This document shows, piece after piece, positions 7,824 through 48,124 of a DNA stretch of 64,000 nucleotides; position 1 is the first letter of the stretch; each line of letters begins with the position of its first letter. Under the pieces are notes generated by a model. It was given only the letters and a program-made list of their open reading frames with translations. It had not been told where the DNA came from and searched no databases. The stretch covers positions 430,399 through 494,398 of the forward strand of contig DATCRQ010000001.1 of assembly GCA_036568905.1 (NCBI GenBank), read 5' to 3'. The translations under genes were made by a program, and so were the position numbers. This stretch comes from Candidatus Saccharimonadales bacterium (lineage in GTDB: Bacteria; Patescibacteriota; Saccharimonadia; Saccharimonadales; UBA4665).

Positions 7824-7827
7824 AGAA

Positions 7828-13312: not shown

Positions 13313-13527
13313 ACCAAAACGCTCTGCATGACATTACTCGCAGTGTACCATAACCTTCTTCGTTTACCGTGACGGTGCGGACGCGAAGGTGAATCAACTC
13401 GTTGTGGAAAACGCTATACTTTTCTGAGATAAAATCAGCTTGCTTCGTAAGGCAGGTGCGGGTACACTAGCAAAGTTCTTATGTAAATGCGTTGTGAATA
13501 GCCAACGCCAGGGTAAGGGAACTAGAT

Positions 13528-17291: not shown

Positions 17292-17316
17292 GCCGCTTAT
17301 GATAACAAACATTGCC

Positions 17317-29412: not shown

Positions 29413-29479
29413 TAAGCGCTCGTCAACGCCTTAGACATGAGGATGGGCGCAGCGGATTTTGGCAAGACGCGCCGGAATA

Positions 29480-30643: not shown

Positions 30644-30826
30644 ACCACCCTTAGCATTATTCTTATGCTACGCGCCGTGCCGCGTTTGTGCAAATTACAC
30701 AACAGTATAAAGAGGCGTTGACATCAAAAATCGTACGAAAAATATACGCGCCGAGGGAAAGTATTGTACAATGCGGATGGGCCGCTGCAACGCGGCATTT
30801 TGAGTTAGTGCTAAAGGCAAGGAATC

Positions 30827-31297
30827 ATGGCAGGGCAACGCAAATCTATTGGGCGACGCTGGCTCACGGCTTATGCACTTTTGGCCGTTCTTCTAATTGC
30901 GTGTGCCTTCGCCCATTCCGCTATTGCCCGGCAACTCAACGATTGGAAAGTCCTGCCTCAACCTGAGCGCCTTACCGAACTCTACTTTACGCATCCTACG
31001 GCGTTGCCCACAACCTACGCCGCCGGCCAAACGCAAACCGTCGCCTTCACGGCGCACAACCTTGAGCATCGCATCACAACCTACACATATAGTATTGCCG
31101 CAAACGACGAAACCGGCAACGCTTCGCAAACGCTCGCCCACGGCACGTTTACCTTGGCCGAAGACCAGACCAAAAACGTCACGGCAAACGTCACGCTGCC
31201 GGCGCTCGGCAATCGTGAGCAAATCACGGTCTCCCTCACCAACGTTTCTACATCCATTGATTATTGGTTAAACGTAGGAACGGAGGCGAAGACATGA
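30827..31297 (+). CDS. Signal-anchored beta-sandwich-like protein heading the glycan operon
   Basis: 156 aa. Anchor WLTAYALLAVLLIACAF, then a T/N-rich beta-type sequence. Its stop overlaps the next start (ATGA). Confidence 0.5.
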   Translation: MAGQRKSIGRRWLTAYALLAVLLIACAFAHSAIARQLNDWKVLPQPERLTELYFTHPTALPTTYAAGQTQTVAFTAHNLEHRITTYTYSIAANDETGNASQTLAHGTFTLAEDQTKNVTANVTLPALGNREQITVSLTNVSTSIDYWLNVGTEAKT

Positions 31298-33572: not shown

Positions 33573-34669
33573 GCACGCGGCGCATCATTCAGGTTTCGGC
33601 GTATTATTTGCCGCACGTTGGCGGACAAGAATGGGCCGTGAAGGATCTCGCGACAAATTTGGCCGCGAACGGCAACGACGTTACGGTACTTACTTCAGAC
33701 CAAGGCGGCGAGGCTGGCACGCACGAAGAAAACGGCGTGAAAGTCGTACGTCTCAAGAGCGTTGAGTTCGCCCACACGGCCATCATGGGCGGGTTGTTTT
33801 TCGAGCTTCTCAAGTGCGCGGGCAAGGACGACGTCGTGCACGTGCACATCGGCCAAGCCTTCACGCCGGAAATCGTGTGGCTTGCTTCAAAGTTCAAACG
33901 CTTCAAGTACGTCGCCCAAATGCATATCGAGCCTACGGCGTCCGGGCCGGTCGGCTCGTTGCTTGCCGTGTACAAACGTATTTTCCTGAAGCGTGCGTTG
34001 CGTGCCGCGAGCGCTGTCATTGTCCTCAACAAAGAGCATAAGCAAATCATCGAGAAGAAGTACGGTTATCGCGGCAAAATTTCCGTCATGAACAACGGCA
34101 TGAACGAGGAATATTTCCAGCTCAAGCGCAAGCCGAAGCACGGCAAAGTTATCAACCTCTTCACGGTCGCGCGCTTTAGCCCGCAGAAAAACTTGCCGAT
34201 GCTTGTGGAAGCCTTAAAGTGGACGCGGCACAAAGTGCACCTCGACATTATTGGCGATGGCGAGGAACGGCCGAAGATCGAGGAAGCCATCCGCGAAAAT
34301 CATCTTGAGGAGCAGGTGACGTTGCACGGCCAGCTTGACCGTAGCGAAAACGTCGCGTTCTATGCGTCGTGCGACGCGTTCGTGCTGGCGTCTTTGTACG
34401 AAGCGCAGCCGCTTGTGTTGCTTGAGGCGATGGCTTCGCGTGCGCCGATTATCGGCACGAATGTGCAGGGCATTGGCGAGCACATCAAAGGCGTCGGATA
34501 TCTCGTGGAACCTACGGCGGCGTCGATTGCCGCGGGCATCGACGCATTTGCCGAAGACCCGACGCACGGCGAGCACTTCGCCGAGGCAGCCTTCAAAAAG
34601 GCGCAAGCCTTTCGTTGGAGCACGCTTCTCAAAAAATACGAAGCCATTTATAACGAGGTGAGCAAGTGA
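33569..34669 (+). CDS. Glycosyltransferase family 4
   Basis: 366 aa. IQVSAYYLPHVGGQEWAV. VLASLYEAQPLVLLEAMASRAPII. ATGA overlap upstream and GTGA overlap downstream. Confidence 0.85.
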   Translation: MSTRRIIQVSAYYLPHVGGQEWAVKDLATNLAANGNDVTVLTSDQGGEAGTHEENGVKVVRLKSVEFAHTAIMGGLFFELLKCAGKDDVVHVHIGQAFTPEIVWLASKFKRFKYVAQMHIEPTASGPVGSLLAVYKRIFLKRALRAASAVIVLNKEHKQIIEKKYGYRGKISVMNNGMNEEYFQLKRKPKHGKVINLFTVARFSPQKNLPMLVEALKWTRHKVHLDIIGDGEERPKIEEAIRENHLEEQVTLHGQLDRSENVAFYASCDAFVLASLYEAQPLVLLEAMASRAPIIGTNVQGIGEHIKGVGYLVEPTAASIAAGIDAFAEDPTHGEHFAEAAFKKAQAFRWSTLLKKYEAIYNEVSK

Positions 34670-37032
34670 ACCTGAAGAAAACGTTCGCAGGCTTTGGCCT
34701 CGGTGCGCTCGTTGCCAGTGACGCATTGATTGCCTTGCTGCATGTAGACGCGTTGTGGCCGCTGCGTATTATTTTGTTCCCGGCACTCGTACTGTTGCCG
34801 GGATATTTTGCTTTGCGGGCGTTTGGCATCACGAAGACGAATACCGTTAAGGCATTTTTGTACGCCGTAACTCTCGGCTTGTTTGGCTTGATGATCGCCG
34901 GCCTCGGTGCCAACGAATTCACCGGACTTTTCGTGCACACCTCACGGCCGTTGAGCTTTGCGAGCATCTTCATCTTTTGGAACATATTGTGTTTCACACT
35001 TTGGGGCGTCGCAACTTTGCATCGCAAGCCAGCAGCCCAGCCTTTCCAAGTGAGCGTTCGCGCGCAGAAAGGAATGTCATCCGAGCCTTCTGTACCAGAA
35101 GTCTCGTCCGCCACCTTTCCGGCTCCACTTCGGGAAGGGCAACTCACTTTACTGAGCCATGCGGCCGGCTGGAAACAGCACGACGTCATCGTAAGCTGCC
35201 TCGCACTTCTTCTGCCCGTCGTCATGGCGCTCGGCGCGTTTCGCTTGAACAACGGCGGCTCAAACATCGTCACGCTCTTCGGATTTGTCTGCGCCGCGTT
35301 GCTGCTTTTGTATGTTGTCGTGAGGCACAAAAGGCTGAGTGAGGGAACGCTGCTCGTCGTGCTGTTTGGCGTCGGCCTCAGCGTTTTGCTCGCGACGTCA
35401 TTACGAAGCTGGGCAATCACCGGCCACGACATCAAGCACGAGTACCAAGTCTTCACCCTTACCGACCAAACGGGCAAGTGGAGTATGGGCGGCCTGCGCG
35501 ACGCGTACAACGCGTGTCTCAGCATCACGATTTTGCCCGAAGTACTCAGCAAGCTCCTGCACATGAGCGGCCTCTACGTCTTCAAGTTTTTGTTTGAGGT
35601 CATCTTCGCTTTGTGTCCGCTCATCGTCTTTACAATCTTACGGCGCTTTACGACGACGTTCAACGCGCTCATCGGCGCGATTTTGTTCATCGCGTATCCT
35701 ACGTTCATCACCGACGCCGCAATGCTCACGCGGCAAGAAACGGCTTATATGTTCTTCGGCCTGGCGATGTTGACGTGGTTCGACAACGACGAAACATTTC
35801 ATAAGCATTGGAAGTTGCTCTTCATCGTATTGTCAGGCGGCGTGATCATGTCGCATTACTCGACGTCGTACACGTTTGCGGCGGTTTTGCTGCTTACGTA
35901 TTTCGCCCGCGTGTTGTTCGTGCCGAAGCACGCCTTCAGCGCGGCGCACAAAAAGTTGTCGCCAATTATGTTGGTGCTCATCGTGCTTGGTACGTTCTTT
36001 TGGTACGCGCAGCTTACGGACACCTCGGGCGGATTGTTTGCGACGGTTAAATCTTCCATCGCCAATATCGCGACGACGTTTAGCGCGGATAACAAGTCTT
36101 CGGACACGTCGGCAGCCTTGTTATTCTCGGCCTCGCAATCGCAAACGAGCATTTTTAACTCCTACGTTTCGAGTGTGCAAAGCAACAGCAGCGCGGCCGG
36201 GCAGGCGGCCGCCGGCAACTATCCAATTTCGCTGGCCGGCGACCAATTGCCGTATACGGCGCTTGGCAAAGCAATCAACGCGAGCGGCCTTGACGCCGGA
36301 AGCTTACAAGATTCGCTGCACTCGTTGTACGCCAAGCTGTTGCAGGTACTCGCTCTCGGCGGCGTCATACTCGTGGGCATCGAGGTCTTGAGAAAACGCT
36401 CGTCAAAGTTCAGCCCCGACTTCTTTGCACTCTGCGCCGCGAGCATCGTATTCCTCGGCGCGCTCGTCGTGCTGCCCAGCATTTCGCAGGATTACGGCAT
36501 CCTGCGTGCCTTCCAGCAATGCATGATCTTTTTGCTCGTCCCCATGATTCTCTTTGTAGAATTGCTCCTCAAAAAACTCCGTACGCGGTGGCGTGCAATG
36601 CTCATGGGCGCGCTTGCCCTCGGCGCATTTGTACTCTTCACGCCGGTGTCCTCAAACCTTATCGGCGGAGTCGATCCATCGCTCAACGCCAATAGCTACG
36701 GCTTTTACTACGGTTACTATTACACGACCGGGGGCGAGTTGGACGGCTACGCCTGGCTGTCCGCAAACGTTCCGAAGAGCGCCGACGTCCGCGCCGCCAA
36801 CTATCACACGGCCGATATGCAAAATCCGTTTTTTCCATTCACGCAAACGGGCATCTTGCCCGAACAAACCAAACCGAGCAGCTACGTGTTCCTCGACCAA
36901 ACCCAAACGCAAGGCCAAAAACTGTACCAAGAATTCAACGGCAATGCGTTGGTCACGACGTTCCCGCTCGCTTATTACCAAAACAATAAGGATTTGATTT
37001 ACGCTAACCCGACCGCGGAGATTTACCGCTGA
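34666..37032 (+). CDS. Large polytopic membrane protein (DUF2206-like); candidate glycan polymerase or GT-C transferase
   Basis: 788 aa with a GTG start. At least 13 TM helices, then a soluble tail of about 150 aa ending in NNKDLIYANPTAEIYR. There is no Wzy or other polymerase elsewhere in the locus. Confidence 0.65.
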   Translation: MNLKKTFAGFGLGALVASDALIALLHVDALWPLRIILFPALVLLPGYFALRAFGITKTNTVKAFLYAVTLGLFGLMIAGLGANEFTGLFVHTSRPLSFASIFIFWNILCFTLWGVATLHRKPAAQPFQVSVRAQKGMSSEPSVPEVSSATFPAPLREGQLTLLSHAAGWKQHDVIVSCLALLLPVVMALGAFRLNNGGSNIVTLFGFVCAALLLLYVVVRHKRLSEGTLLVVLFGVGLSVLLATSLRSWAITGHDIKHEYQVFTLTDQTGKWSMGGLRDAYNACLSITILPEVLSKLLHMSGLYVFKFLFEVIFALCPLIVFTILRRFTTTFNALIGAILFIAYPTFITDAAMLTRQETAYMFFGLAMLTWFDNDETFHKHWKLLFIVLSGGVIMSHYSTSYTFAAVLLLTYFARVLFVPKHAFSAAHKKLSPIMLVLIVLGTFFWYAQLTDTSGGLFATVKSSIANIATTFSADNKSSDTSAALLFSASQSQTSIFNSYVSSVQSNSSAAGQAAAGNYPISLAGDQLPYTALGKAINASGLDAGSLQDSLHSLYAKLLQVLALGGVILVGIEVLRKRSSKFSPDFFALCAASIVFLGALVVLPSISQDYGILRAFQQCMIFLLVPMILFVELLLKKLRTRWRAMLMGALALGAFVLFTPVSSNLIGGVDPSLNANSYGFYYGYYYTTGGELDGYAWLSANVPKSADVRAANYHTADMQNPFFPFTQTGILPEQTKPSSYVFLDQTQTQGQKLYQEFNGNALVTTFPLAYYQNNKDLIYANPTAEIYR

Positions 37033-38294
37033 TGATTACAAAACTTAAAGCACGCGTTGGCAACGACAAACTGCTCAGCAACTCGCTGTATTTGATGTTG
37101 GCGACAGGTGCGATGGCGCTGTTTGGTTTTGTGTTTTGGATTGTTGTAGCACATATGTTCAAGTCTACGACAGTTGGTTTGGCTACGACGCTGCTTTCGA
37201 TGTCCGGCCTCATCGCATCGCTCAGCCTCGTAGGTTTCGACACCGTTTTCATCCGTTTTTTGCCTAAGGCCGAGAACCGGAACGCGCATATCGACAGCGG
37301 CTTGATGATGGTCGGCATTGCCTCGGCCATTTTGTCCGCGGGCTTTTGCGCACTCGTGCCGCACCTTGCGCCAAAGCTCACGTTCGTTGACCACAACCTT
37401 TGGTATATTTTGAGTTTCGTCATCTTCACGATCTTCACGGCGTGGAACACGCTCACCAACGCAGTCTTCGTAGCGTACCGCGAAACGCGTTACGTGCTCG
37501 TCATCAATATTATCTTCAGCGCCATCAAGATGGTGTTGCCGTTTGCCGTCATGCATGGCGGTCCGATGGCGATTTTTGCCGTGGCCGGCATCGCGCAAGT
37601 CATCAACGTGTTGCTCAGCCTTGCGGCGATGATGAAGTACTTTGGCTACCGGCCGGCACCGATTATCCATCGCGATGTCGTGCGCGAAGTACGCAAATAT
37701 TCGTCGGGCTCGTACGTTGCGAGTTTCCTTAACCTTATGCCGATCACGGTTCTGCCGCTGGTCGTTACCAACCAACTTGGGCCGTCGCAGGCCGCGTTCT
37801 TTTACATCGCCTTCACGATTGCCAACCTGATATTTACCATTGGTTACTCCACGACGCAATCGTTGTTTGCGGAAAGCTCGCACAACGAAGAGAAATTGGA
37901 CGCCAACTTGCGGCGCGGCTTCAAGATTGCCGTCATCATTGGCGCGCCGGCGATTGTCGTACTGCTTTTGGCGGGGCAACTCATCCTCAAACCGTTCGGC
38001 CACGATTACGCTGACGGTGCCACAACGATCTTGCGCGTCCTCGGCGCCAGCAGCATTTTCGTGTACATGTACAGCGCGCTCAACGCGCTCTTCAAGGTCA
38101 CGAAGGATATTCGCGCCATGATCGTCGTCAACATTTTCTACGCCGGCATTATCATCGGCCTCGGCTGGGCGCTGGCCAAGCCGTTGCACCTTTTGGGCGT
38201 GGGCATTGCGTGGGCGAGCGGCAACTTCGCGGCGACAATCGTGGGGCTTTACTTCAGAAGAAGAGCCGCTCAACGCGAAGCAGCGTCGGCGTAA
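37032..38294 (+). CDS. Wzx-like oligosaccharide flippase (MOP superfamily)
   Basis: 420 aa. N-terminus LKARVGNDKLLSNSLYLMLATGAMALFGFVFWIVVAHMF and 12 to 14 TM helices. TGATG overlap with the upstream gene. Confidence 0.8.
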   Translation: MITKLKARVGNDKLLSNSLYLMLATGAMALFGFVFWIVVAHMFKSTTVGLATTLLSMSGLIASLSLVGFDTVFIRFLPKAENRNAHIDSGLMMVGIASAILSAGFCALVPHLAPKLTFVDHNLWYILSFVIFTIFTAWNTLTNAVFVAYRETRYVLVINIIFSAIKMVLPFAVMHGGPMAIFAVAGIAQVINVLLSLAAMMKYFGYRPAPIIHRDVVREVRKYSSGSYVASFLNLMPITVLPLVVTNQLGPSQAAFFYIAFTIANLIFTIGYSTTQSLFAESSHNEEKLDANLRRGFKIAVIIGAPAIVVLLLAGQLILKPFGHDYADGATTILRVLGASSIFVYMYSALNALFKVTKDIRAMIVVNIFYAGIIIGLGWALAKPLHLLGVGIAWASGNFAATIVGLYFRRRAAQREAASA

Positions 38295-39553
38295 GTCTCG
38301 GCTACGATGTCAATCGAGTCCGACGCTTGCTTGATGTAGCCCGGCAAAACCTTACGAAGCTTTTTGCGGTAATCTTCGCCGTGCACAATAAGTTCGTCGG
38401 CTTTTTGGATGAGCAATTCGGCGCTGACGTCTTCGATTTTTACCCACCAATCGTCGAGGCCGAGGTCCTTCATAATGCCGCTGGTTTTGTGCTCATACTC
38501 GATGGCCAGCGCCGGCACAAACGCCGTCAAAGAAAAAATGATCGAGTGAAACCGCGTGCCAACAATAAAGTCGAGGTCGCTGTACAGCGCCTTAATTTGG
38601 TGATGGTCGTAGTTTTCCATCAGCACTTCAACGTCCTTTTTGTGCTTGATGAGTTTACGCACGCGCTGGCCGACTTCGCGGTCGTCGTCGTGATGAAACT
38701 TGGCCGTGACTTGCGGGATAAACACAACCTTCGCGCCATATTTTTTCACGAGATGATCGGCGAGGGAAGCGATGGCTTGCTCATACTTCGCTTGCTTCTC
38801 AGGCTGCATCCACGCCCGCACCGTGATGCCAACGATGAGTTGCTTAGGCTTTGCCTTGAGCATCTTCCTGAGGTCAGCCGACTTGGGCGCAGTAAAGAGA
38901 AAGCCGGCGTCCACGGATTTTACGATCGGCTTCGTGACGCCAATCTTCTCCAGCAAATCCTTGCTGATTTGCTCGCGCGTGATAATCGCGCTCACTTTAC
39001 GGTTGAACGTATAACGAATCAAACGCTCCTCAAACGTATGATAAAACGGCCCGAACGATTGCGCATACAACGCCGTTGGCGTGCCCAAAGCGCTCGCCAC
39101 GAACAGCGGATGCGTGAGCAGCATGAGGTTGTAGATGCTCGTAAGGTCGCGCTGGCCGCGAAGATAGCCGCCGCCGACGGCGATCACCAAATCAGCCTCG
39201 GCGTACAGCTTCGCGATTTTGCGCAGGCTCTTTGGCAACGGCAAACTGATATGCAAATAGCGCCGCGCGTACGCCCAAACGGTCGTCGCACTCATAATAT
39301 ATATGCCGTAGGCAAGTTTGGCCGGCTTGCTGGCTGCGCCGAAGTTGGCAAAGTACATAAACGCGTGCTCAACCGGCACCCCCTCGAACGTTTCGCCGGG
39401 CTTCGTCGTGTCGAGGCTGAGCACCGTGAGTTTGGCCGGCTTAAACTTGCGCTGCGTCTCACGTATGAGCACACTCAGCAGCGCGGCGTCGCCCTTATTA
39501 TCCTTTGAATAGGCGTGCGAAATAATAATGTTGCGTGGTTGACCCTGGTCCAT
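38270..39553 (-). CDS. Polysaccharide pyruvyl transferase family protein
   Basis: 427 aa. NIIISHAYSKDNKGDAALLSVLI (G-x-x-N-x-GD motif), VIAVGGGYLRG, FIVGTRFHSIIFSL. It overlaps the flippase gene end convergently by 25 bp. Confidence 0.8.
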   Translation of the reverse strand: MDQGQPRNIIISHAYSKDNKGDAALLSVLIRETQRKFKPAKLTVLSLDTTKPGETFEGVPVEHAFMYFANFGAASKPAKLAYGIYIMSATTVWAYARRYLHISLPLPKSLRKIAKLYAEADLVIAVGGGYLRGQRDLTSIYNLMLLTHPLFVASALGTPTALYAQSFGPFYHTFEERLIRYTFNRKVSAIITREQISKDLLEKIGVTKPIVKSVDAGFLFTAPKSADLRKMLKAKPKQLIVGITVRAWMQPEKQAKYEQAIASLADHLVKKYGAKVVFIPQVTAKFHHDDDREVGQRVRKLIKHKKDVEVLMENYDHHQIKALYSDLDFIVGTRFHSIIFSLTAFVPALAIEYEHKTSGIMKDLGLDDWWVKIEDVSAELLIQKADELIVHGEDYRKKLRKVLPGYIKQASDSIDIVAETYADAASR

Positions 39554-39793
39554 GCAAAAATAAAATAGCCGCTTTCGCGGACTAAGTCCCTGGAAGATAA
39601 CCCTGGTTATCCTTTGTAGTATAGCATGCGCGTTTGAGTGGTTTTACACGGCATCATAAAAAATTACAACGACCTTTAGAGGTCAGTCTGGCTTGCAAGC
39701 CGAGGCAACTCACGATACTGTAAGCGCGTTGAAGTTGTAATGCTTTTAGGCAACAGAGTTCAGGGGCTGACTGTGTTTGCTATTGCCAAAATT

Positions 39794-42700
39794 ATGCCTC
39801 GATTACCACTGCCCGGTTCAGACGCAAATCATTGGGGAACAATCCTCAACGATTTCTTGTCGGTCGAACATTCGGCCGATGGCTCACTCAAACTCCGCAC
39901 CGACGGAACGTTGAATGGTTTTTATTCCAAGCCCAGCGGCGGTATTCCGGCTGGCGATCTGAGCGCAAGCGTCCAAGCTTCTTTGACGTCGCCTCAGAAC
40001 TTTGTTGACCTTTCAAGTTTGCAGACGATTAATGGCGCTAAGACGTTCTCGCAAAATATTTCCGTGCCCGGCGGCACGGTCACGCCGCTCGATTGGCACA
40101 ACGTAAAAACCTACGGCGCCGTCGGCGACGGCATCACCGATGATCTTGCTGCCGTACAGTCTGCCGTCAACGCCGCATCGTCCGCAGGCGGCGGCGTGGT
40201 GTTCTTTCCAAAGGCAACATATTTGTTAAGCGCGGCACTCGCACCGAAGTCTAGCGTTACATTGCTCGGCGTAGGCAGTGGCAGCGTGCTTAAAACCAGC
40301 GCAAACAGCTACATCGTCGGCACAACAACAGCTTCCTTCAGCGACTTCACCATAGACAGCATTACGTTTGTCGGGCCGGTCAACAATAGCGTTTCCGTCC
40401 CGACGCGCGCCCGTACCACGTCGGGCAACGGCGCGCAAAATGCCGTGTACCTCGACACAAATCAAGATCCGTACAACCCGGGCGGTGGTGCAATCACCAA
40501 TTTCACGATGCGCAATTGCACGGTCAAAGACTGTACGGCGCTGCCAATCAACATTCGCGGCGTGGGCGGCGTCGTGCGCGTAGTAAATAATAATTTCTAT
40601 AATAACCAGGACGTCGGCTTCATTTATTGCAGCGAGGTTATCTTTGCCAACAACCACGTGCAAATGTCCGCCGACAACGGTGTGTCCATCTCGCGAGGCA
40701 ACCAAAAGGTAAGTTGCACCGGCAATACATTCGATAACTGTTGCTACAACGGCATTTGGCTGTCCGGCTTTGATGTCCAAGGTAACGGTGCCCTCAACGA
40801 AACCGGCCCGACGTTTTTCTCGTGCACTGGCAACACGATTACCAACGTTGGCTTCAATGGCATTATCGCCGACGGCGCTCCGGCGCACGGCGTCATCTCC
40901 GGCAACTTCATTAACCAAGGATACTTCCGTGGCCCAAGCGACCAGCCGAGTGACGTCAATGGCGCCGGCATTTACATCGGCGGCTATCCAATCAGCGCGC
41001 GCACGTCGCCAACGGCATACGCCACTAATATCAACGTCGTTGGTAACACGTTATATCAATGCGCACGCGCCGGCGTATACGTCACGGGCGCGAAAGCGAT
41101 TAACATTGACGCCAACCTCATTCTCAACTGCGGCACGCAGTTCAAGGCCGACGGCGCGACGGCCATCGCCAGCAGCGACAGTTCGCAGAACGTCGGCGTC
41201 CTCATCGACAATGTCAGCACCAATACCGACATATGCGTTCGCATGAACACCGTCCTCGATGAACGTAGCACGCCTTACTGCAATCAGGCACTTGCGCCGC
41301 AATCGCCACCAAGCTCGTTTATGTATTACTACAACCAGATGACCGGCTGTCGCAACGCGTATAATTTGCTTGATTACACATCAAATACGCGCGAAATTTC
41401 CGGGACCTATCGCTTTGACAGCCCGCTCAAAGCTGTCGGCGGCGCGACGGCCGGCAGCAATGCCGGCACCGGCACGGTCGCCGGCTTTGACATCAACGGC
41501 GCGTCAGGCTCTACCCGGCCGTTCCGCTTGCTCACGGCGGGCAATGCACGCTGGCTCATGCGTGCGAGTTCTACGGCAGAGAGCGGTTCCAACGTTGGCT
41601 CAGATTTTGCTATCGACGCCTACGACGACACCGGCACGTACCTCAGCAGTCCGCTCACCATCACGCGCGCAACGCAGGCAACAACGATCGCCAGACTCAT
41701 CGCCAATTCGCTGAGCCTGACAGGAGGCATGAGTTCGTCGCTGAGCATGAACGGCAACGATATTCTAAACGCCCACAACATTACCGACACCAACAACAGC
41801 ATCGTATTAGCGTTTGTACCGACGGCCAACGCGGTGAATTATATTGCCGTCCAAAACAACACGACGACCAACAATCCGGCATTCTACACCGAAGGTGCCG
41901 ATGCGGACATCGGCATGACCTTCAAAACGCAAGGCAAGGGGACGACCGTCTTCCATCCCGGCACCGATACGGCCGGAGCTGTACAATTCCGTGCCGCGGC
42001 AAACACTGCAGCCGCAACAGTGCTCGGCATCGATACCGCCAACGGCAGAGTCGGAATCAACACTGCGGCGCCCGCCAATGCACTCGACGTCAACGGCACG
42101 CTCTCGGCGACGTCCTTAAAGATAACTACCTCGCCGGCAGCCGGCTACGTATTGACCTCGGATGCCTCGGGAAATGCAACGTGGCAGGCGACGGCTGTCT
42201 CGGGCACTGCCGGTGGTGATCTCGCCGGCACATATCCCAACCCAACGCTCACGGGCAGCGCGAATGTCGAGAGCATCATCCGCGCCAATCGCCTCGATCA
42301 ATTCGCCGCACCGACATCAAGTGTCTCGCTCAGTTCACAAAAGATCACCAACCTTGCAAATGGTAGTGCAACAACTGACGCCGCAACCTTTGGCCAAATC
42401 CCCGCGGCTACAACGACAGTTCCGTCGCTTGCAACCAGCACGGCTGCAGCAGCCGGCACGGCCATAACATTTGCCCGTGCCGACCATGTCCATCCGGCTA
42501 CGTACGCATGGACAACCGCCGATTACGGATTGCTGTCGCAAAACATGGATATTGCCATGCTTAGTGGCAATAGTGTTGTGCCCACAGCCGGCACCATATT
42601 TCTGGCAAAGATGAACATTCCCGTAGCTATAACGGCGACTAACGTGCTGCTGTGGGTGGCCGTTGCGGGCAGCGGGCTTACCAGCGGGCAAAACTTTGCA

Positions 42701-43018
42701 GCGTTGTATTCCGGCAGCGGCACGCTGCTCGCCAAAACAAGCGATCAATCTGCTAACTGGCAAAACACCGGTTTGCAAACCATGCCGCTCACGGCCGCAC
42801 AGGCATTGAACCCCGGATCGTACTACGTTGCCTTTTGGGTAAACGGCACGACGCTGCCGGCGTTCCGAGCCGGCATTGGCTCGGCGTCGGTGAACGCAGG
42901 CCTCACAGGCAACGCCGCCCGTTTTGCCAGCGCCAACACAGGCGTCACCACAACGGCGCCAGCAACTCTGGGCACGGTCAGCGCCGATGGGCACTCATGG
43001 TGGGCTGCCTTCAGCTAA
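39794..43018 (+). CDS. Mosaic tail-fibre/tailspike-like surface protein: shared N-terminal adaptor + right-handed beta-helix (pectate-lyase-3-like) + fibre repeats + C-terminal beta-sandwich
   Basis: MPRLPLPGSDANHWGTILNDFLSVEHSADGSL. QTINGAKTF. WHNVKTYGAVGDGITDDLAAVQSAVNAASSAGGGVVFFPKATYLL, followed by repeated NN/GN beta-helix rungs. GRVGINTAAPANALDVNG...GYVLTSDASGNATWQ. DAATFGQ. ITFARADHVHP. The track ORF starts at 39740; ATG 39794 matches the paralogous N-terminus. Confidence 0.8.
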   Translation: MPRLPLPGSDANHWGTILNDFLSVEHSADGSLKLRTDGTLNGFYSKPSGGIPAGDLSASVQASLTSPQNFVDLSSLQTINGAKTFSQNISVPGGTVTPLDWHNVKTYGAVGDGITDDLAAVQSAVNAASSAGGGVVFFPKATYLLSAALAPKSSVTLLGVGSGSVLKTSANSYIVGTTTASFSDFTIDSITFVGPVNNSVSVPTRARTTSGNGAQNAVYLDTNQDPYNPGGGAITNFTMRNCTVKDCTALPINIRGVGGVVRVVNNNFYNNQDVGFIYCSEVIFANNHVQMSADNGVSISRGNQKVSCTGNTFDNCCYNGIWLSGFDVQGNGALNETGPTFFSCTGNTITNVGFNGIIADGAPAHGVISGNFINQGYFRGPSDQPSDVNGAGIYIGGYPISARTSPTAYATNINVVGNTLYQCARAGVYVTGAKAINIDANLILNCGTQFKADGATAIASSDSSQNVGVLIDNVSTNTDICVRMNTVLDERSTPYCNQALAPQSPPSSFMYYYNQMTGCRNAYNLLDYTSNTREISGTYRFDSPLKAVGGATAGSNAGTGTVAGFDINGASGSTRPFRLLTAGNARWLMRASSTAESGSNVGSDFAIDAYDDTGTYLSSPLTITRATQATTIARLIANSLSLTGGMSSSLSMNGNDILNAHNITDTNNSIVLAFVPTANAVNYIAVQNNTTTNNPAFYTEGADADIGMTFKTQGKGTTVFHPGTDTAGAVQFRAAANTAAATVLGIDTANGRVGINTAAPANALDVNGTLSATSLKITTSPAAGYVLTSDASGNATWQATAVSGTAGGDLAGTYPNPTLTGSANVESIIRANRLDQFAAPTSSVSLSSQKITNLANGSATTDAATFGQIPAATTTVPSLATSTAAAAGTAITFARADHVHPATYAWTTADYGLLSQNMDIAMLSGNSVVPTAGTIFLAKMNIPVAITATNVLLWVAVAGSGLTSGQNFAALYSGSGTLLAKTSDQSANWQNTGLQTMPLTAAQALNPGSYYVAFWVNGTTLPAFRAGIGSASVNAGLTGNAARFASANTGVTTTAPATLGTVSADGHSWWAAFS

Positions 43019-43947
43019 TTAGCCGCCGGCCGCCCCAACAGCCATCGGTAGCTTACAGCCCAAAACGCAATTGAATATAAAGCGAAGAAAATCATCCCGG
43101 CATACGTATGAAAAAGGCTGAACGCCAGATGCGGGTTGATATAGTAGCCAGCCAGGACGAGTACGTACACGCGCAAAATATTGCAGCCAAACAGGAGAAG
43201 CATCGCGGCGGGAAACACGAGAATGAACCGGCGCTTGTTAAAACGTTTCCAGTCCAAAAATCCAACGATCGCATAGAAGCCGCTAAACAATGCCAGGGAT
43301 TCGATCCCCGAACAATATTGCGCCACGGTTATGCCGAACTTCGTAAGCAGCAAAGTGCGCGGCGGGATAATCGCTACCGTCAGGCCGCTCGTGCGTAACA
43401 ACCACGCCGCAGCGTGGAGCACGACGCCGGCGAGCACTGGCCAAAGCGCATAGATACCAGCGAGCAGGAAGTAAAAACAAACGCCTGAGATAACGGCGAG
43501 GCCCAACTCCCGTCGATATGCTCGGACAACCAACCGCAATGCCGCCGGCCCAAAACAGCCGCCCAAAGCAAACACAACGCTCGCAAGCAAAAAGCCATGC
43601 GCGCCAACCAGCCAAAGTTCGGTACGTTGTCCGACGAGCAGATGCCCGACGCACCACCACGAGGCAGCGAAGCTTGCCGTCGCTGTGGCCAGCCAGCCAA
43701 AGTTCCCTTGACGCCACGCAGGCAATTGTACTGACCATTGCGTGCGATAGGCAAGCAGGGCGAACGCAATAAGCGCAAACAGCAACGCCTTACCAAAGCC
43801 TCCATACCAGCCAAAGCCGTCGCGGTTTAGGATGGAGCTGCCTACAATCCTCGGACCAATCAAACCCGAAAACACGACAAAGACCGTCAAAAAAGCAATC
43901 AGCCGCTCAATGAGCGGCGTGATTGCTTTTGGAAGCTTCAACTTCAT
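43015..43947 (-). CDS. Exosortase/archaeosortase-family transpeptidase homologue
   Basis: Polytopic protein with about 8 TM helices. Family motifs occur in the expected order: VAQYCSGIESLALFSG (Cys), FGCNILRVYVLV (Arg), SLFHTYAGMIFF (His). ATG 43947 is preferred; a TTG alternative lies at 43989. Confidence 0.7.
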   Translation of the reverse strand: MKLKLPKAITPLIERLIAFLTVFVVFSGLIGPRIVGSSILNRDGFGWYGGFGKALLFALIAFALLAYRTQWSVQLPAWRQGNFGWLATATASFAASWWCVGHLLVGQRTELWLVGAHGFLLASVVFALGGCFGPAALRLVVRAYRRELGLAVISGVCFYFLLAGIYALWPVLAGVVLHAAAWLLRTSGLTVAIIPPRTLLLTKFGITVAQYCSGIESLALFSGFYAIVGFLDWKRFNKRRFILVFPAAMLLLFGCNILRVYVLVLAGYYINPHLAFSLFHTYAGMIFFALYSIAFWAVSYRWLLGRPAAN

Positions 43948-43954
43948 GAAACGT

Positions 43955-44407
43955 TTAGACGTTTTCGGTTGCGAACTTGCGTCGTACAACCAAGAAACCT
44001 GCGCCAGCAGTAAGTACTGCGCCAGCGCCCGTCACAAGGCCGAGTTCAGGAAGCGCAACATTGACGATAACAACGTTCAACTTCATAGTGTCAGCCGTAA
44101 CTTTGCCGCTGCTCACGCCGCCTTTGCCGCCCTTTGAAGCAACAACGGTAACTGTATCACCGACTGCGCATTGCCCTTTCGCAAAGGTAACGCTGTATTG
44201 GCCGGCGTTGTTCGTCTTGGTGCTGCGCGAATAGTTGTTACATACAACGGTTACGTGCGCACCTTTTACCGGTTTGCCATTGTTATCAATAACGCCGCTT
44301 ACGCTTGTTTTGGCGCCTGTCGTCGGTGCCGCTGAAGCAATCGACGGTACAGCAAACGCTGCTAATAAGCTGAGTGCCGCTACAATCGCTGTGATCTTCT
44401 TTCTCAT
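43955..44407 (-). CDS. Secreted CarboxypepD_reg-like beta-sandwich protein with a C-terminal PEP-CTERM-like sorting signal
   Basis: GGAG RBS. Signal peptide MRKKITAIVAALSLLAAFAVPSIASA. GVIDNNGKPVKGAHVTVVCNN...NNAGQYSV. C-terminus ALPELG-LVTGAGAVLTAGAGFLVV-RRKFATENV. The track ORF starts at 44422. Confidence 0.7.
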   Translation of the reverse strand: MRKKITAIVAALSLLAAFAVPSIASAAPTTGAKTSVSGVIDNNGKPVKGAHVTVVCNNYSRSTKTNNAGQYSVTFAKGQCAVGDTVTVVASKGGKGGVSSGKVTADTMKLNVVIVNVALPELGLVTGAGAVLTAGAGFLVVRRKFATENV

Positions 44408-44486
44408 GGTCCCTGACTCCATTTACGTTGTCAACCTTACCATAATGAACCCGGCTTCCAAGGATTGCAAGGCTTTCGTTGTAATT

Positions 44487-45407
44487 TTAACGCAGCGTAA
44501 ACGTAGCGAGCAGGCCGATGTACGCCAGTTTGCTCATCGCGTTGATCGTTATCGTAAGCAAGAGATTTTGTTTCTTGTAATACGTGAAGCTTAGTACGAT
44601 TCCTGAAAGCAAAGCGAAGAGCGGAACGAGCAGCGTGCTATGGCCGACGCTTGCGAACGTATAAAGCGCGGCCGAGAGTGCAGCGGCTACGACGGGGTGC
44701 ATAATTTTGGCAGCGCGTTGTTGGATTAGGCCCCGGAACAACATCTCTTCGGCAATCGCAAACACGACACTTGAGGCAGCAACGAGAGGCAACGAAGTCG
44801 GCTCGTACGGATAATAATTGCGTAGCATAAAGTAGCCGGCCGTGCCGAGCACTTGGCCGACGATCAGCATGAGCGGGAGCGTCAACGCATAGCCACGGCC
44901 CGTAAGTGCAGTGTTGGGCAGCGGTTCGTCCAGCGTAAACCAAAAACGGTAGACGAGCGTGAGCAAGAGTAGGGCGTCATAGAAAACGACAGCTTCGGCA
45001 AAATTGGAAGATTGCGGCAGGCTGAGCGTGATCATCGTTGCTACGGGCAGGATGGCGAGGGAAATAGCAAACTTACGGTACGACTCACGCCAAAGCGCAA
45101 GGCCGCAGAGCGCAGCAAACGCACCGGCATTAACATAGACGCCGAGCGCCGGCTTCCACCACAGACTCAGCTGCGAAGCCCCAAGCATGACGGCTGAGCC
45201 AAGGGCAAGACCCCAGTTTTGGCGCAACACAGTAAGCGCCCTGACGGGACGTACGGCTGCATATATTTTGCTTAATGTCTGTCCGCGGTTTTTAGCTACC
45301 TTAGGCTGGGCAACTATTTTCTTGGCCGCAGCCTTGGCTGTCATAGATTGTCGTGAAGCCGCAGCCTGTGCGGACGTTTTACGGGCAGTCGTCTTCGTCG
45401 TAGCCAT
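44487..45407 (-). CDS. CPBP (CAAX/Abi) family intramembrane protease homologue
   Basis: 306 aa. A/K-rich basic N-terminal tail, at least 6 TM helices, and motif 1 FAIAEEMLFRGLI (EExxxR). FASVGH is a possible motif 2. I could not see a clean HxxxN motif 3. Confidence 0.7.
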   Translation of the reverse strand: MATTKTTARKTSAQAAASRQSMTAKAAAKKIVAQPKVAKNRGQTLSKIYAAVRPVRALTVLRQNWGLALGSAVMLGASQLSLWWKPALGVYVNAGAFAALCGLALWRESYRKFAISLAILPVATMITLSLPQSSNFAEAVVFYDALLLLTLVYRFWFTLDEPLPNTALTGRGYALTLPLMLIVGQVLGTAGYFMLRNYYPYEPTSLPLVAASSVVFAIAEEMLFRGLIQQRAAKIMHPVVAAALSAALYTFASVGHSTLLVPLFALLSGIVLSFTYYKKQNLLLTITINAMSKLAYIGLLATFTLR

Positions 45408-45702: not shown

Positions 45703-46188
45703 CTAGGCAGCGTAGACAACTACCAACGTATGCGGCGACATACGGCTCGTAAGCGTAGCAAGTTGCTCATCGGAAGCTCCTTGCGTCACGTACATCGTGC
45801 CGCATTCGGGCGGATTAAGTATCACTTGGCCACGCGTCGCAAAAAGCACGTCGGCGGCAGGCTCATCGTCACCATTCTGCACCGCGAAATGCGCCCGCTC
45901 CATTTGGGCAATTTCTTCCGAAAGTTCCAAAATGCGCGCAGATTTCAGCGTACTCGAACGCTCGCGTAGCGCTTGTCTCATCACCACACGCCATTGTTTG
46001 CTAACGGCAGCCAGCATACCTGGCGGACTTTCCGTCACGACAACGATCTTGCCGGAAAGCTGGCGCGTATACATATGATGTGCCAAGTCCCATGCCAAAC
46101 TTACGTTCGCCCGTAGCTCACGCGCTTCAATATATAGAGAACTCATTGCCGCCCCCCACGCCGATTTTCGGCGCTTTGTCCCTGGCAA
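45703..46188 (-). CDS. Hypothetical cytoplasmic protein
   Basis: 161 aa (147 aa if ATG 46146, MSSLYIEAREL, is used). No motif recognised. Confidence 0.5.
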   Translation of the reverse strand: MPGTKRRKSAWGAAMSSLYIEARELRANVSLAWDLAHHMYTRQLSGKIVVVTESPPGMLAAVSKQWRVVMRQALRERSSTLKSARILELSEEIAQMERAHFAVQNGDDEPAADVLFATRGQVILNPPECGTMYVTQGASDEQLATLTSRMSPHTLVVVYAA

Positions 46189-46399
46189 TACTTCTACGCT
46201 CCCGCACTATGAAGTCAGCCCACCCGACAATAAACTCGCCCCGATTCCAAAAATGCTCATTACAAGCAAACCACTGACGGTCATCACGATCGCAAAAGCC
46301 AACGCTTAGTTCGTCCGCGGGCCGCTCTTTGCAGCAAATGACACACTGTAAAACAACAATATCGGCCACATCCTCAGGCCAAGCAATCACTCCCATCAC
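46127..46399 (-). CDS. Small Cys/His-containing hypothetical protein
   Basis: 90 aa. LQCVICCKERP ... FACNEHFW suggests a CxxC...CxxH metal site. It overlaps the downstream ORF by 20 to 62 nt. Confidence 0.4.
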   Translation of the reverse strand: MMGVIAWPEDVADIVVLQCVICCKERPADELSVGFCDRDDRQWFACNEHFWNRGEFIVGWADFIVRERRSIARDKAPKIGVGGGNEFSIY

Positions 46400-46622
46400 C
46401 CTACAAGCCTTTCTATCTAGCCAGCCGCTGCGTCCCTGAAGGCAACAGCAAACTAGACCTCCAAGAAGTCTTATATTTTTACCAAACAGCTACAAATGAG
46501 ATATTAAGCGCATCGCGTTATTCACCAAATACAATATAAGTCGTATAATGGTGCTTGAAATAAAAACAAGCTTGAATAACGACTATATAAATGATACGTT
46601 TAATACTCGGAACATTTGTATG

Positions 46623-46646
46623 AGCACCGAGCGATCGCTCAGTGCT
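46623..46646. promoter_or_regulatory. 24-nt near-perfect palindrome upstream of the HTH-methyltransferase gene
   Basis: AGCACCGAGCGA|TCGCTCAGTGCT, with 11 of 12 positions pairing, centred on GATC, 60 nt before ATG 46706. Confidence 0.3.
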
Positions 46647-46705
46647 ATGTTATCTTTAAATGCGGAAACATGTCAACACTTTTAACGAGATAAAGTTGCT
46701 CGCTT

Positions 46706-47929
46706 ATGCTGTACTTCAAAAATCGCGAACTAGCCGAAACCTACCACGTATCCGACCGCACCATCCGCAACTGGATCGAAGAGACTAAGCAGGGCAAGCT
46801 GCAGCTATCGCTGCACGAGCAAGGCGGCCGGTCTTTTGTCGCCAACACCACGAAAAACTTGAGCATTATCGAGGAACTCGTGTCTGCCCGCAAGAAATTT
46901 CGCCCGCACCACACTTTTAAGGTGATTACGCCGAAGCCGGAGTTTTATAAGTTCTACAACCCGGCACAGATCTACGATATATTGACGAACATCGAGATCC
47001 ATCACGAGATTCCAAGACAATATAACTATTTTGATGGCGGCGCGCATGCTTGGGATGCATATGTTAAGCGCCTAGCTTCTGAAGAAACATCTAACATATT
47101 TAATAGGGGCGTCGAGCTACTTAATGATAGTTATTACTATATAGATAACGCCATAGGGGAAAGGAAACGCGTAAACATTATCGATCTAGGCGGAGGTAAC
47201 GCTATGCCTGCGCGCTCTTTGATCGCCCACCTAATTAAACAGGGTGTCATGGGCCGTTATGTCGATCTGGATATAAGTAAAGAGATGCTTGCTATAGCGA
47301 GAAAGAATATAGACAAGTGGTTCGGCGATACTGTTGCCTTTGAAGGATACGAAACAGATATCAACTACGATCGTTTTGCGAATATCTTAGCCGAAGAATA
47401 CCTAGGACCAAACTCCGAAGACACAATTAACATAGTTCTATTTCTCGGCATGATGCTGGCGAATCTACGAACACCCGATGGGGCTCTAAGGGTCATACAT
47501 GATAGCCTGGGGCTGAACGACCTACTTGTATACACTAACAAGCTCGATACACCCACCACTCGTAGATTCTTTGACTTTAATGTTCGTGAAGATGAGCCGG
47601 TATTACCGCCCATCCATAGGCTTGTTATCGACTTACTAAATATAGATAAATCAATGTACGATCTAGATCTGGGCTACGATTCGGCACGTAAGGAGCGCTA
47701 CGAGCGTATTCGCTTCAATACCGCCGTAACAATCCAGTTTGACTTTGCCGAAGGCTCCAGGTCGTTGGATTTGAATAAGGGAGATTCCATCCTCGTATGG
47801 CGAGCACGGCAGCAAGGCGCGCTCGATGTCATCCACCAATTCGATCGGAACGATTTTTACATGCTGCACTCGAGCCAGACGGACGATCAAGAATACATTT
47901 TGACAGTTTCGCGCGTTAAATCTGAGTAG
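46706..47929 (+). CDS. HTH domain fused to an EgtD-like (Methyltransf_33-type) SAM-dependent methyltransferase
   Basis: 407 aa, AT-rich gene. N-terminal ELAETYHVSDRTIRNWIEE (helix-turn-helix). NIIDLGGGNAMPARSLIAHL (SAM motif I), YVDLDISKEMLAIARKNI, VLFLGMMLANL, and a C-terminal substrate-domain layout like EgtD (from memory). Confidence 0.6.
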   Translation: MLYFKNRELAETYHVSDRTIRNWIEETKQGKLQLSLHEQGGRSFVANTTKNLSIIEELVSARKKFRPHHTFKVITPKPEFYKFYNPAQIYDILTNIEIHHEIPRQYNYFDGGAHAWDAYVKRLASEETSNIFNRGVELLNDSYYYIDNAIGERKRVNIIDLGGGNAMPARSLIAHLIKQGVMGRYVDLDISKEMLAIARKNIDKWFGDTVAFEGYETDINYDRFANILAEEYLGPNSEDTINIVLFLGMMLANLRTPDGALRVIHDSLGLNDLLVYTNKLDTPTTRRFFDFNVREDEPVLPPIHRLVIDLLNIDKSMYDLDLGYDSARKERYERIRFNTAVTIQFDFAEGSRSLDLNKGDSILVWRARQQGALDVIHQFDRNDFYMLHSSQTDDQEYILTVSRVKSE

Positions 47930-48124
47930 TAATCGTAAAAACTACAACGAATCGGACGCGCACATTTTCGCTTCTTCTGCAGTCTTCATATAATATACTT
48001 GTACAAAATGCTTAAAGATTTTACAAATGTTACGAATTAGCTAGGGAACATATTTTTACAACACTACCTTTTGTGACATATTAATGCTGTTAGAACGTCG
48101 CTATGCAGCAGGCTAGCGCCATGC

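Follow-up and report, generated by a model that had tools for sequence, protein, structure and literature searches.

An intact phage-type receptor-binding protein gene in a Saccharibacterial chromosome, possibly domesticated for host recognition

Cultivated Patescibacteria are mostly Saccharibacteria, which live as epibionts on Actinobacteria (PMC10633639). As candidates for how members of the candidate phyla radiation (CPR) find, bind and open their hosts, only type IV pili and a few predicted adhesins have been put forward so far (PMC10633639, PMC11665869, PMC12206443). For Southlakia epibionticum, it was proposed that host glycans are the target of essential surface proteins that contain domains for glycan binding or degradation (PMC10633639). 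Here, we describe a gene in a stretch of 64,000 nucleotides, further called the window, from the chromosome of a Saccharimonadales bacterium (assembly GCA_036568905.1, contig DATCRQ010000001.1, positions 430,399 to 494,398, forward strand; all coordinates below are those of the window). The gene, at positions 39794-43018, appears from its sequence to encode an intact phage-type receptor-binding protein (RBP) composed of an adaptor, a short fibre, a glycan-active β-helix tailspike, a stalk and a jelly-roll tip.

The closest described precedents are the mosaic adhesive trimer (MAT) proteins of Bdellovibrio bacteriovorus, i.e., 21 chromosomally encoded phage-like fibres with a constant N-terminal domain, which function in prey recognition (PMC10769870). 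At least one of these fibres binds glycans at the surface of the prey, and in the fibres a Sec signal peptide precedes the conserved N-terminal domain, which comprises about 130 amino acids (aa) (PMC10769870). The protein described here resembles them in belonging to a multi-copy repertoire with a constant N terminus and variable C-terminal parts (two copies in the window and up to 4 loci per metagenome-assembled genome, or MAG), and in being encoded by a bacterium that lives on other bacteria; the N-terminal domain of the MAT fibres is presumed to dock on the predator surface, and their tips are swappable. In contrast to the MAT fibres as described, it lacks a signal peptide, and its constant part is an adaptor of 33-40 aa that is homologous to the N termini of phage tail proteins. 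It also differs in carrying a full tailspike β-helix and in stemming from a CPR epibiont with a Gram-positive-like envelope. The VCBS, dockerin and FN3 proteins of S. epibionticum are likewise Saccharibacterial envelope proteins proposed to target host-cell glycans, with adhesion or degradation as the purpose (PMC10633639), but, by their description, they belong to other domain families and were not reported as phage-derived. A full-text literature search for Saccharibacteria in combination with tailspike or minor tail protein yielded no paper, and the few papers on Saccharibacteria and 'phage tail' do not describe the adaptor family. The reuse of phage RBPs by a bacterial parasite has a precedent in the MAT fibres; the adaptor family itself is new.

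Two further groups of known proteins are relevant for comparison. All modules have homologues, shuffled in the same way, among the tailspikes and minor tail proteins of actinophages and actinobacterial prophages (PHROG 29706; the prophage protein P0007; Rhodococcus phages Trina and NiceHouse; Streptomyces phages BRock, LuckySocke and FlowerPower). Unlike those, the gene described here is located outside any phage or prophage in the window, among glycan-synthesis and exosortase genes, has a composition in line with a genome of ~54% GC, and is part of a multi-copy chromosomal family in Saccharibacteria. The other group comprises RBPs of tailocins and gene transfer agents (GTAs), such as the R- and F-type pyocins and RcGTA, that are encoded at a distance from the structural cluster. 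They are fibres of phage origin that have no signal peptide and are used by a particle encoded in the chromosome, and their genes can be modular as well. However, the surroundings of the adaptor genes examined contained no particle genes, and a Saccharibacterial particle is hypothetical.

The module map of the gene is as follows, with the evidence in brackets:

39794-43018, + strand: complete gene for the 1074-aa adaptor-tailspike-fibre protein (1074 codons and TAA)
39794-39913, + strand: N-terminal adaptor core, aa 1-40, MxRLPxPGxDxxxWGxILNDFLxVEHxxDGxL (family alignment, profile)
39914-40093, + strand: extended adaptor and linker, aa 41-100, containing the fibre motif NFVDLSSLQTINGAKTF (pairwise mapping)
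40022-40048, + strand: QTINGAKTF, part of the fibre motif, aa 77-85 (motif search)
40094-41713, + strand: right-handed parallel β-helix module of the tailspike/depolymerase type, as predicted, aa 101-640 (PF12708, PF13229, PHROG 29706, AlphaFold2, Foldseek)
aa 101-117, + strand: WHNVKTYGAVGDGITDD (motif search)
aa 132-145, + strand: GGGVVFFPKATYLL (motif search)
41714-42463, + strand: fibre/stalk region with repeated tail-fibre units, aa 641-890 (units recur, shuffled, in homologues)
aa 751-768, + strand: GRVGINTAAPANALDVNG (motif search)
aa 784-798, + strand: GYVLTSDASGNATWQ (motif search)
aa 862-868, + strand: DAATFGQ (motif search)
42464-43015, + strand: C-terminal tip domain, predicted jelly-roll (β-sandwich), aa 891-1074 (AlphaFold2, PDB and BFVD matches)
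aa 894-901, + strand: ARADHVHP (motif search)

A previous sequence-only reading of the window had described the protein as a mosaic of phage RBP modules. The seven motifs it quoted are all present (7/7) in the 1074-aa translation, and the description is upheld: phage tail homologues were found for every module, and the order of the modules is shuffled among homologues. Its assignment of a pectate-lyase-3/tailspike-type β-helix is likewise borne out by profile scores and modelling. PF12708 was matched at aa 101-321 with 70.5 bits (cut-off 27) and PF13229 with 39.7 bits (cut-off 25.9), and PHROG 29706 'tail spike protein' covers aa 115-633 with profile positions 65-605 of 657 (E=1.1e-88). The full-length AlphaFold2 (AF2) monomer model, which was built from 48 homologues and is reliable for aa 1-40 and 100-630 only, shows a right-handed β-helix at aa 100-520 with a predicted local distance difference test score (pLDDT) >90; the pLDDT is 73-85 at aa 1-40 and low at aa 41-100. 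That the stalk is unreliable in this model is expected if a trimeric fibre is modelled as a monomer. Within the β-helix module, the helix proper (aa 100-520) is followed by a conserved C-terminal sub-domain at ~aa 540-640.

When the β-helix was compared with the PDB using Foldseek, matches were found to the AlgE4 and AlgE6 epimerases, the tailspikes of Sf6, HK620, phi29 (gp12) and CBA120, a GH87 glucanase, the lyase RbmB and the adhesin PfbA, with a Foldseek probability of 1.0 for AlgE4 and the Sf6, HK620 and phi29 gp12 tailspikes. As modelled, the fold is of a generic polysaccharide-active type. The best of these fold matches are the mannuronan C5-epimerases AlgE4/AlgE6 (E=1e-11 to 1e-13) and RbmB of Vibrio cholerae (E of about 1e-7 to 1e-8), with which the protein shares the location of its gene beside a polysaccharide-synthesis locus. 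However, sequence identity to them is only 13-18%, AlgE and RbmB are secreted and have no phage adaptor, stalk or tip, and the nearest sequence relatives of the β-helix are phage tailspikes. A tblastn search retrieved tailspikes of Rhodococcus and Arthrobacter phages with 30-36% identity over 41% of the query. A sequence search of PDB chains yielded only generic β-helices for the protein and no match for a 645-aa paralogue encoded in the same window (see below).

The C-terminal domain, which was already suspected to be a β-sandwich, was modelled separately (aa 885-1074, 27 homologous segments), and the model is indeed a jelly-roll β-sandwich, with a pLDDT of 91.2 and a predicted template modelling (pTM) score of 0.84. 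Its best PDB matches are a capsid-associated chain of cyanophage A4, the tail tip of Mycobacteriophage Bxb1 (9d93_Pa) and the central fibre gp20 of Douge, followed by carbohydrate-binding modules (CBM6/35/32), and in BFVD it matches the minor tail proteins of Streptomyces phages BRock and FlowerPower with TM scores of 0.80-0.84. At the sequence level, it is 34-45% identical to minor tail proteins of Streptomyces phages. The Foldseek comparison that had been suggested for the separate domains, thus, retrieved tailspike and polysaccharide-active β-helix folds and, for the C-terminal domain, phage tail-tip folds. In between, the stalk contains units at aa 663-812 (including GRVGINTAAPANALDVNG and GYVLTSDASGNATWQ) and at aa 823-875 (including QKITNLANG..DAATFGQ). 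A trimeric autotransporter adhesin resembling YadA was considered as well and rejected: YadA_stalk (PF05662) scored 20 bits at aa 850-889 with a cut-off of 28.4, an anchor domain is lacking, and the C terminus is the jelly-roll.

The modules recur in other combinations in homologues. The extended adaptor is common to P0054, P0056 and P0057 at 45-60% identity. P0054 additionally has the tip in common with the protein and contains a different central β-helix, while in P0002 ~340 aa of fibre units are inserted between adaptor and helix and the tip variant is different. The stalk units are found in shuffled order in P0002, P0004, P0006, P0009, P0065 and P0066, and in other proteins the tip domain is joined to a polysaccharide deacetylase or to a phage hyaluronidase. 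The β-helix module is 50-59% identical to proteins of Kitasatospora and Streptomyces prophages, the adaptor is 44-48% identical to Streptomyces phage proteins, and in a neighbour-joining tree of the β-helix module (no support values), adaptor-bearing sequences are interspersed with those of Kitasatospora and Streptomyces prophages. As an indication only, this tree suggests a repeated exchange with actinophage lineages.

The bias toward actinophages was measured against 50,697 phage records. All records matched by the protein (29/29) are from Streptomyces, Rhodococcus or Arthrobacter phages, and those matched by its 645-aa paralogue are from Microbacterium phages. The adaptor protein of locus L011 matched 213 records, of which 201 are from Mycobacterium phages, 8 from Streptomyces phages and 2 from Tsukamurella phages, that of L037 matched 249 records, including 222 from Gordonia and 4 from Corynebacterium phages, and the result for L042 was mixed. 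No Firmicute phages are present in these match lists, although they are numerous among the 50,697 records. The bodies of the family are modules of tail fibres, tailspikes or minor tail proteins, which are found mainly also in the phages and prophages of Actinomycetota.

The family is defined by its adaptor. In an alignment of 21 N termini, the invariant positions are R3, L4, P5, G8, D10, W14, L18, N19, L22 and G30, all of which are present in the protein within the motif MxRLPxPGxDxxxWGxxLNxFLxxxHxxDGxL that begins at residue 1. No Pfam or PHROG model matched the adaptor region in whole-protein scans. A profile of the first 40 residues, with the protein described here as first sequence, was searched against 1.84 billion cluster representatives (50% identity) and retrieved 6,649 of them at E<=1e-3, of which 5,164 remain with a cut-off of E<=1e-10. 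In the 150 top-scoring profile matches, the match begins almost always at residue 1. The adaptor-bearing proteins vary in size from 140 to 1170 aa and have highly diverse bodies, and 9 of 10 members tested matched tail-fibre, tailspike or minor-tail families of PHROGs. An in-frame ATG at position 39740 would prepend 18 mildly hydrophobic aa, MLLGNRVQGLTVFAIAKI, to the protein (39740-39793), and the called open reading frame (ORF) of P0054 carries a comparable hydrophobic extension of 16 aa. Since the 18-aa extension is not conserved in the related locus L049 and the family profile matches begin at residue 1, these upstream extensions are probably gene-calling artefacts.

To assess the distribution of the adaptor, GTDB (one genome per species) was scanned with the pattern N[DN]FLSVEH. 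As the broad alignments A1 and A3 were too diverse for pattern scans and the narrower A2, A7 and A8 were used, the resulting 40 confirmed genome loci, like the 5 viral loci discussed below, are pattern-limited lower bounds, and the two numbers are not directly comparable. The genomes are named Saccharibacteria, Saccharimonadales or Saccharimonadia in 31 of the 40 cases, with up to 4 loci per MAG, and the remaining 9 loci are in unlabelled or otherwise labelled MAGs. A cluster look-up of 10 adaptor proteins provided organism names for two, one of them Saccharimonadales and the other a MAG labelled Methylomirabilota. The MAGs labelled otherwise include those of L014 (DATLCF010000002.1, Nevskiaceae), L032 (DASVRI010000045.1, Abditibacteriaceae) and L040 (Weeksellaceae). 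L014 and L032 have Saccharibacteria-like neighbours, i.e., an LCP protein 52% identical to that of the window and a block with tatC and a small twin-arginine protein; the three contigs are probably mis-binned or mislabelled. The adaptor-defined family is very large and modular, with several copies per Saccharibacterial genome among housekeeping genes, and with >5,000 clusters at 50% identity and no Pfam match it is new and deserves definition.

The surroundings of the gene in the window include the following genes:

38270-39553, - strand: polysaccharide pyruvyl transferase (PF04230), the divergent neighbour and last gene of a glycan-synthesis block (28195-39553)
43015-43989, - strand: exosortase-family protein (PF09721), the convergent neighbour
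13528-15465, + strand: second adaptor-bearing gene, 645 aa, with a body homologous to minor tail proteins of Microbacterium phages (adaptor identity, PHROGs)

The upstream glycan-synthesis block comprises genes for an LCP protein, a GH5 protein, three GT4 glycosyltransferases, a DUF2206 membrane protein and a Wzx-type flippase before that for the pyruvyl transferase. At the other side, the stop codons of the gene and the exosortase gene overlap in the sequence CTAA (43015-43018). The gene context as first read from the sequence, i.e., the divergent pyruvyl transferase, the convergent exosortase and the CTAA overlap, was reproduced in full. As the upstream gene is divergent and the downstream gene convergent, the gene forms its own, monocistronic transcription unit. 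The adaptor had been called shared, and the first 32 aa of the protein are indeed 62% identical to the start of ORF 13528-15465. This paralogue shows 35-37% identity over 84-90% of its length to minor tail proteins of Microbacterium phages, e.g., RubyRalph gp42, and matched the PHROG tail fibre families 7032 and 13714 (E=1e-41 and 1e-37) and no Pfam family. The 3' end of its ORF overlaps by ~100 nucleotides the start region of a convergent histidine-kinase ORF (15363-17333, - strand), probably because the TTG start of the latter is over-extended.

In the window, 50 ORFs were compared with Pfam and 10 hypotheticals with PHROGs (60 in total), with ORFs of less than ~130 aa covered in part only. 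Phage-like matches were limited to the protein described here and ORF 13528-15465, and none of the 60 ORFs matched a terminase, portal, capsid, tape-measure, baseplate or integrase family, which agrees with the earlier statement that phage structural genes are absent from the 64 kb. A larger prophage that could contain the gene, which would have spoken against the sequence-only reading, was not encountered in the window, i.e., in the 64 kb examined of a contig of ~980 kb. The gene has 57.2% GC and 66.6% GC at third codon positions (GC3), which is within one standard deviation of the average of the genes in the window (54.7+-3.2% and 62.3+-6.6%, respectively) and far from the values of its prophage homologues (67-68% GC and 87-90% GC3).

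The best full-length homologue, and the nearest among 5.8 billion clusters, was found in a MAG designated 'Candidatus Saccharibacteria bacterium' (50% identity, 86% coverage). Together with the RarA protein of the window (see below), this homologue identifies the organism as a Saccharibacterium; a close relative of its genome was not found. A scan of JGI metagenomes for the pyruvyl transferase revealed one relative only, which is 65% identical and located on the short contig L049. Its divergent neighbour is again a gene encoding an adaptor, a fibre motif and a β-helix, the product of which is 52% identical to the protein over aa 3-221. In this sole relative, the loss or decay of the gene between conserved flanks, which would have pointed to a simple phage remnant, is not seen, as the counterpart is kept at the same divergent position. 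Because its composition matches that of the genome and L049 retains the pairing, the gene is neither a recent import nor a transient remnant. It resides stably in the chromosome of a Saccharibacterium (CPR/Patescibacteria).

The homologues are found in two kinds of context. The actinobacterial homologues that were checked are all (3/3) located in prophages (P0007 of Kitasatospora kifunensis, P0006 of Kitasatospora sp. and P0017 of Streptomyces sp.), where they adjoin terminase, portal, capsid, sheath or baseplate genes. The Saccharibacterial homologues P0002, P0003, P0054 and P0056 (loci L001, L002, L050 and L051) are all (4/4) outside prophages, with housekeeping or miscellaneous neighbours and no mutual synteny. 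A survey of 150 proteins encoded within ~4.5 kb on either side of the adaptor gene in 25 Saccharibacterial loci was made with PHROGs. Among the best 25 of the 81 families matched, the recurrent ones are ABC transporters, clamp-loader/RarA-type ATPases, elongation factor, protease and topoisomerase, and no head or tail family is present. When all proteins encoded in six phage or prophage loci were compared with those of the Saccharibacterial loci, homologues were found for proteins of the RBP type only.

In three scans of 2.9 million IMG/VR contigs, the adaptor was found on five contigs only. In L045 (67.9% GC) and L055 (48.9% GC), the adaptor gene starts right where the tape-measure gene ends. 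The adaptor genes of L046 and L047 are located in tail-gene regions, downstream of a giant collagen-like tail fibre in the former and upstream of a tape-measure-like ORF in the latter. From this placement, the adaptor is, by origin, an N-terminal element of phage tail-tip proteins. L055 (IMGVR_UViG_3300005332_000020, 1-10082) is siphophage-like, with neck, tape-measure and adaptor-tailspike genes, three tandem PHROG 24894 paralogues and, downstream, a gene resembling Acb5. For its putative major tail protein, the 50,697 phage records contain no relative, and the structural proteins of L055 have no homologues in the Saccharibacterial loci that were fetched; it is a candidate CPR-infecting phage lineage.

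How might the protein be used? The explanation we place first, although tentatively and at somewhat less than an even chance, is that of a domesticated, modular phage RBP used by the epibiont against glycans at the surface of its host cell. The protein would form a trimeric fibre, and its adaptor would dock this fibre onto a conserved partner of the epibiont, as it presumably does onto tail tips in phages. The tip and the β-helix would bind to a glycopolymer associated with the wall of the actinobacterial host and might also cleave it, and the fibre would contribute to host recognition, attachment or access to the host surface. Module swapping behind the constant adaptor could then retune the host range. 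Export would have to be non-classical, for which co-export with a Tat substrate is one lead. A trimeric surface fibre is considered the likeliest role by analogy with the surface proteins of Southlakia and the fibres of Bdellovibrio. With respect to its target, for which both the organism's own polymer and that of a partner cell had been proposed, the evidence leans to the polymer of a partner or host, without settling the question. A more general version of this idea is possible but doubtful: Saccharibacteria, and perhaps further CPR epibionts, would have turned the RBPs of the phages of their hosts into a chromosomal plug-and-play system for host recognition, in which a constant adaptor docks interchangeable actinophage-derived fibres and depolymerases on the surface after unconventional export, e.g., on a small Tat substrate, and host range is written in the repertoire of modules.

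Several observations weigh against use of the protein at the epibiont surface. Signal peptides and sorting signals are absent from all members of the family that were seen, as expected of proteins that are assembled on a particle in the cytoplasm, and in this respect the family differs from the MAT fibres, which do have signal peptides. P0012, a protein with adaptor and β-helix that is 53% identical to the one described here, is encoded directly after the tape-measure gene in L055, which is a genuine phage contig of 48.9% GC; thus, phages with a Saccharibacteria-like GC content use the same adaptor-tailspike architecture. Furthermore, a host-encoded actinophage was reported to bind the Saccharibacterium TM7x and to infect it to a limited extent (PMC13578794), so that actinophage-type RBPs could be aimed at Saccharibacterial surfaces. 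Such infection also offers a route for gene flow. Finally, the conserved adjacency to a glycan locus and the likeness in fold to AlgE and RbmB fit an enzyme that acts on the organism's own polymer.

The first of these points lead to an alternative that we regard as unlikely but that deserves serious weight, i.e., that the protein serves as the receptor-binding fibre of a phage or of a particle resembling one (a prophage, a tailocin or a GTA-like particle) encoded elsewhere in the genome. It would be assembled via its adaptor in the cytoplasm and released by lysis; the many adaptor genes would then be alternative fibres supplied in trans, and the targets could be other Saccharibacteria or actinobacteria. 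The lack of a signal peptide throughout the family would be explained naturally, the adaptor genes of L045 and L055 directly follow a tape-measure gene and those of L046 and L047 lie among tail genes, L055 combines a Saccharibacteria-like GC content with a putative major tail protein without relatives among isolated phages, and Xhp1 shows that phages attack Saccharibacteria. However, the 60 ORFs scanned in the 64-kb window include no structural phage gene, the recurrent neighbour families of adaptor genes described above (best 25 of 81) are housekeeping ones, only RBP-type proteins of phage loci have homologues in the Saccharibacterial loci fetched, and the structural proteins of L055 have none there. 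Moreover, it would be unusual for a genome of ~1 Mb to contain several fibre genes at scattered positions and yet no known tail cluster, and a tail cluster in Saccharibacteria is not mentioned in the literature searched.

It is improbable, to our judgement, that the protein is a glycanase, lyase or epimerase that is phage-derived in origin only and acts on the product of the adjacent locus, a pyruvylated glycan of the wall or the extracellular space, by trimming or modifying it. The gene is located immediately beside a complete glycan-synthesis block, its pairing with the pyruvyl transferase gene is kept in L049, and the top fold matches include AlgE4, AlgE6 and RbmB, which modify the polymers of their own producers. 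In contrast, the homologues P0002, P0003 and P0054 are encoded in unrelated, non-glycan contexts, and the gene is transcribed divergently and is not part of the glycan operon. A stalk of ~250 aa, a jelly-roll of the phage tail-tip type and a phage adaptor would be unnecessary for a housekeeping enzyme, and the protein has no signal peptide though its substrate would be extracellular.

A role in phage defence or receptor masking, in which the protein would bind or destroy the glycan receptor of actinophages on the epibiont or its host and, thus, limit superinfection, has very little probability. A prophage of the host binds TM7x, and TM7x alters the availability of the phage (PMC13578794), while Saccharibacteria were reported to modulate the susceptibility of their host to phage (PMC11032452), but direct evidence is lacking, the export problem is the same as for a domesticated host-recognition fibre, and no known defence genes were identified beside the gene (no dedicated PADLOC search was made). 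That the gene is an inert, stranded tail gene of a decayed prophage is equally hard to believe, even though all its modules are of phage origin and the module tree, for which no support values are available, suggests repeated exchange with actinophage lineages: its ORF of 1074 codons is intact, its composition matches the host genome, a counterpart is present at the same position in L049 even though the identity of the flanking gene has dropped to 65%, the window contains another intact adaptor gene, and the family has thousands of intact members with a strongly conserved adaptor.

If the protein is a host-recognition fibre of the epibiont, its export requires explanation. No signal peptide was found in it; it starts directly with the 33-40-aa adaptor, without a hydrophobic leader. 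The earlier remark that no signal peptide or sorting signal is evident was, thus, correct, as the N terminus reads MPRLPLPGSD... and the C terminus has no hydrophobic helix. It is because of the lack of a signal peptide that export must be non-classical. Two routes were considered and rejected. A substrate of the neighbouring exosortase (PEP-CTERM type), which would end in a sorting motif, a transmembrane helix and a basic tail, is not probable, as the C terminus ...GTVSADGHSWWAAFS is devoid of a hydrophobic helix and the most hydrophobic 19-mer is located inside the jelly-roll, and a direct Tat substrate, which would begin with a twin-arginine signal (S/T-R-R-x-F-L-K) and a hydrophobic region, is incompatible with the single R and the absence of a hydrophobic region in the N terminus.

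Genes of the Tat machinery are, however, found near some adaptor genes. In 7 of about 44 Saccharibacterial loci, tatA/tatC are present within 3 kb of the adaptor gene, where the naive expectation for ~1 Mb genomes would be <1. The tat-linked loci are:

L036, 12605-14137
L037, 8720-9982
L032, 8909-10004
L022, 486-1844
L027, 2960-4204
L035, 1396-2245
L001, 9664-9873

A conserved protein of ~65 aa with a twin-arginine motif (SRREFL, SRKEFL or TRKEFL) and one transmembrane helix is encoded after tatC, and in two loci a gene for such a protein, with a near-perfect motif, is located directly upstream of the adaptor gene. However, this small protein is confined to 5 loci that carry a tatC-pyk-pgk block and is not a general neighbour of adaptor genes. 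Export of the adaptor proteins as hitch-hikers of a Tat substrate may be considered as a lead only; the linkage may instead reflect synteny that was inherited, or a hot spot for insertions in the tatAC-pyk-pgk-tpi block.

Were the proteins deployed at the cell surface, the adaptor family would provide a concrete molecular handle on host recognition, and the hosts of uncultured Saccharibacteria could be predicted by matching modules to those of phages with known hosts. This would also be the second independent example, the MAT fibres being the first, in which a parasitic or predatory bacterium reuses the host-recognition hardware of phages. If the proteins serve a phage-like particle instead, they would reveal an unrecognised class of CPR phages or tailocins.

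Some further observations concern the organization of adaptor loci. In L014, the gene directly downstream of the adaptor gene (11314-12588) is 27-32% identical to two genes downstream of the adaptor gene in L046, a viral contig of 130 kb (10363-14115). Since the two loci share these downstream homologues, the adaptor gene and a partner gene may move together. In L051, the genes upstream of the adaptor gene P0056 encode TraG/VirD4-like (PF12696, weak) and DUF87 ATPases and resemble those of type IV secretion systems (7133-9854). The stop codon of P0056 overlaps the start of the gene for a second β-helix protein of 609 aa (12697-14526), which suggests two-gene fibre cassettes. In large Streptomyces phages of the BE type, such as LuckySocke (L044, regions 2768-4603 and 12001-13398), the adaptor gene (gp41) and the tip-domain gene (gp12) are located in the tRNA-rich left arm, upstream of the terminase gene, and are annotated as hypothetical proteins only.

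Within the window, the exosortase gene belongs to a cassette (43015-45407, - strand) that further encodes a 155-aa CarboxypepD_reg-like protein and a CAAX/Rce1-like protease. The lowest GC content of the window, 46.2% as compared with about 54%, is found at 46000-48000, which may be a recently acquired island. This region encodes a protein of 407 aa, in which ~100 unannotated N-terminal aa, possibly DNA-binding, precede an EgtD-like histidine-specific methyltransferase domain (PF10017). The RarA protein encoded in the window is 73-75% identical to RarA in three Saccharibacterial MAG loci.

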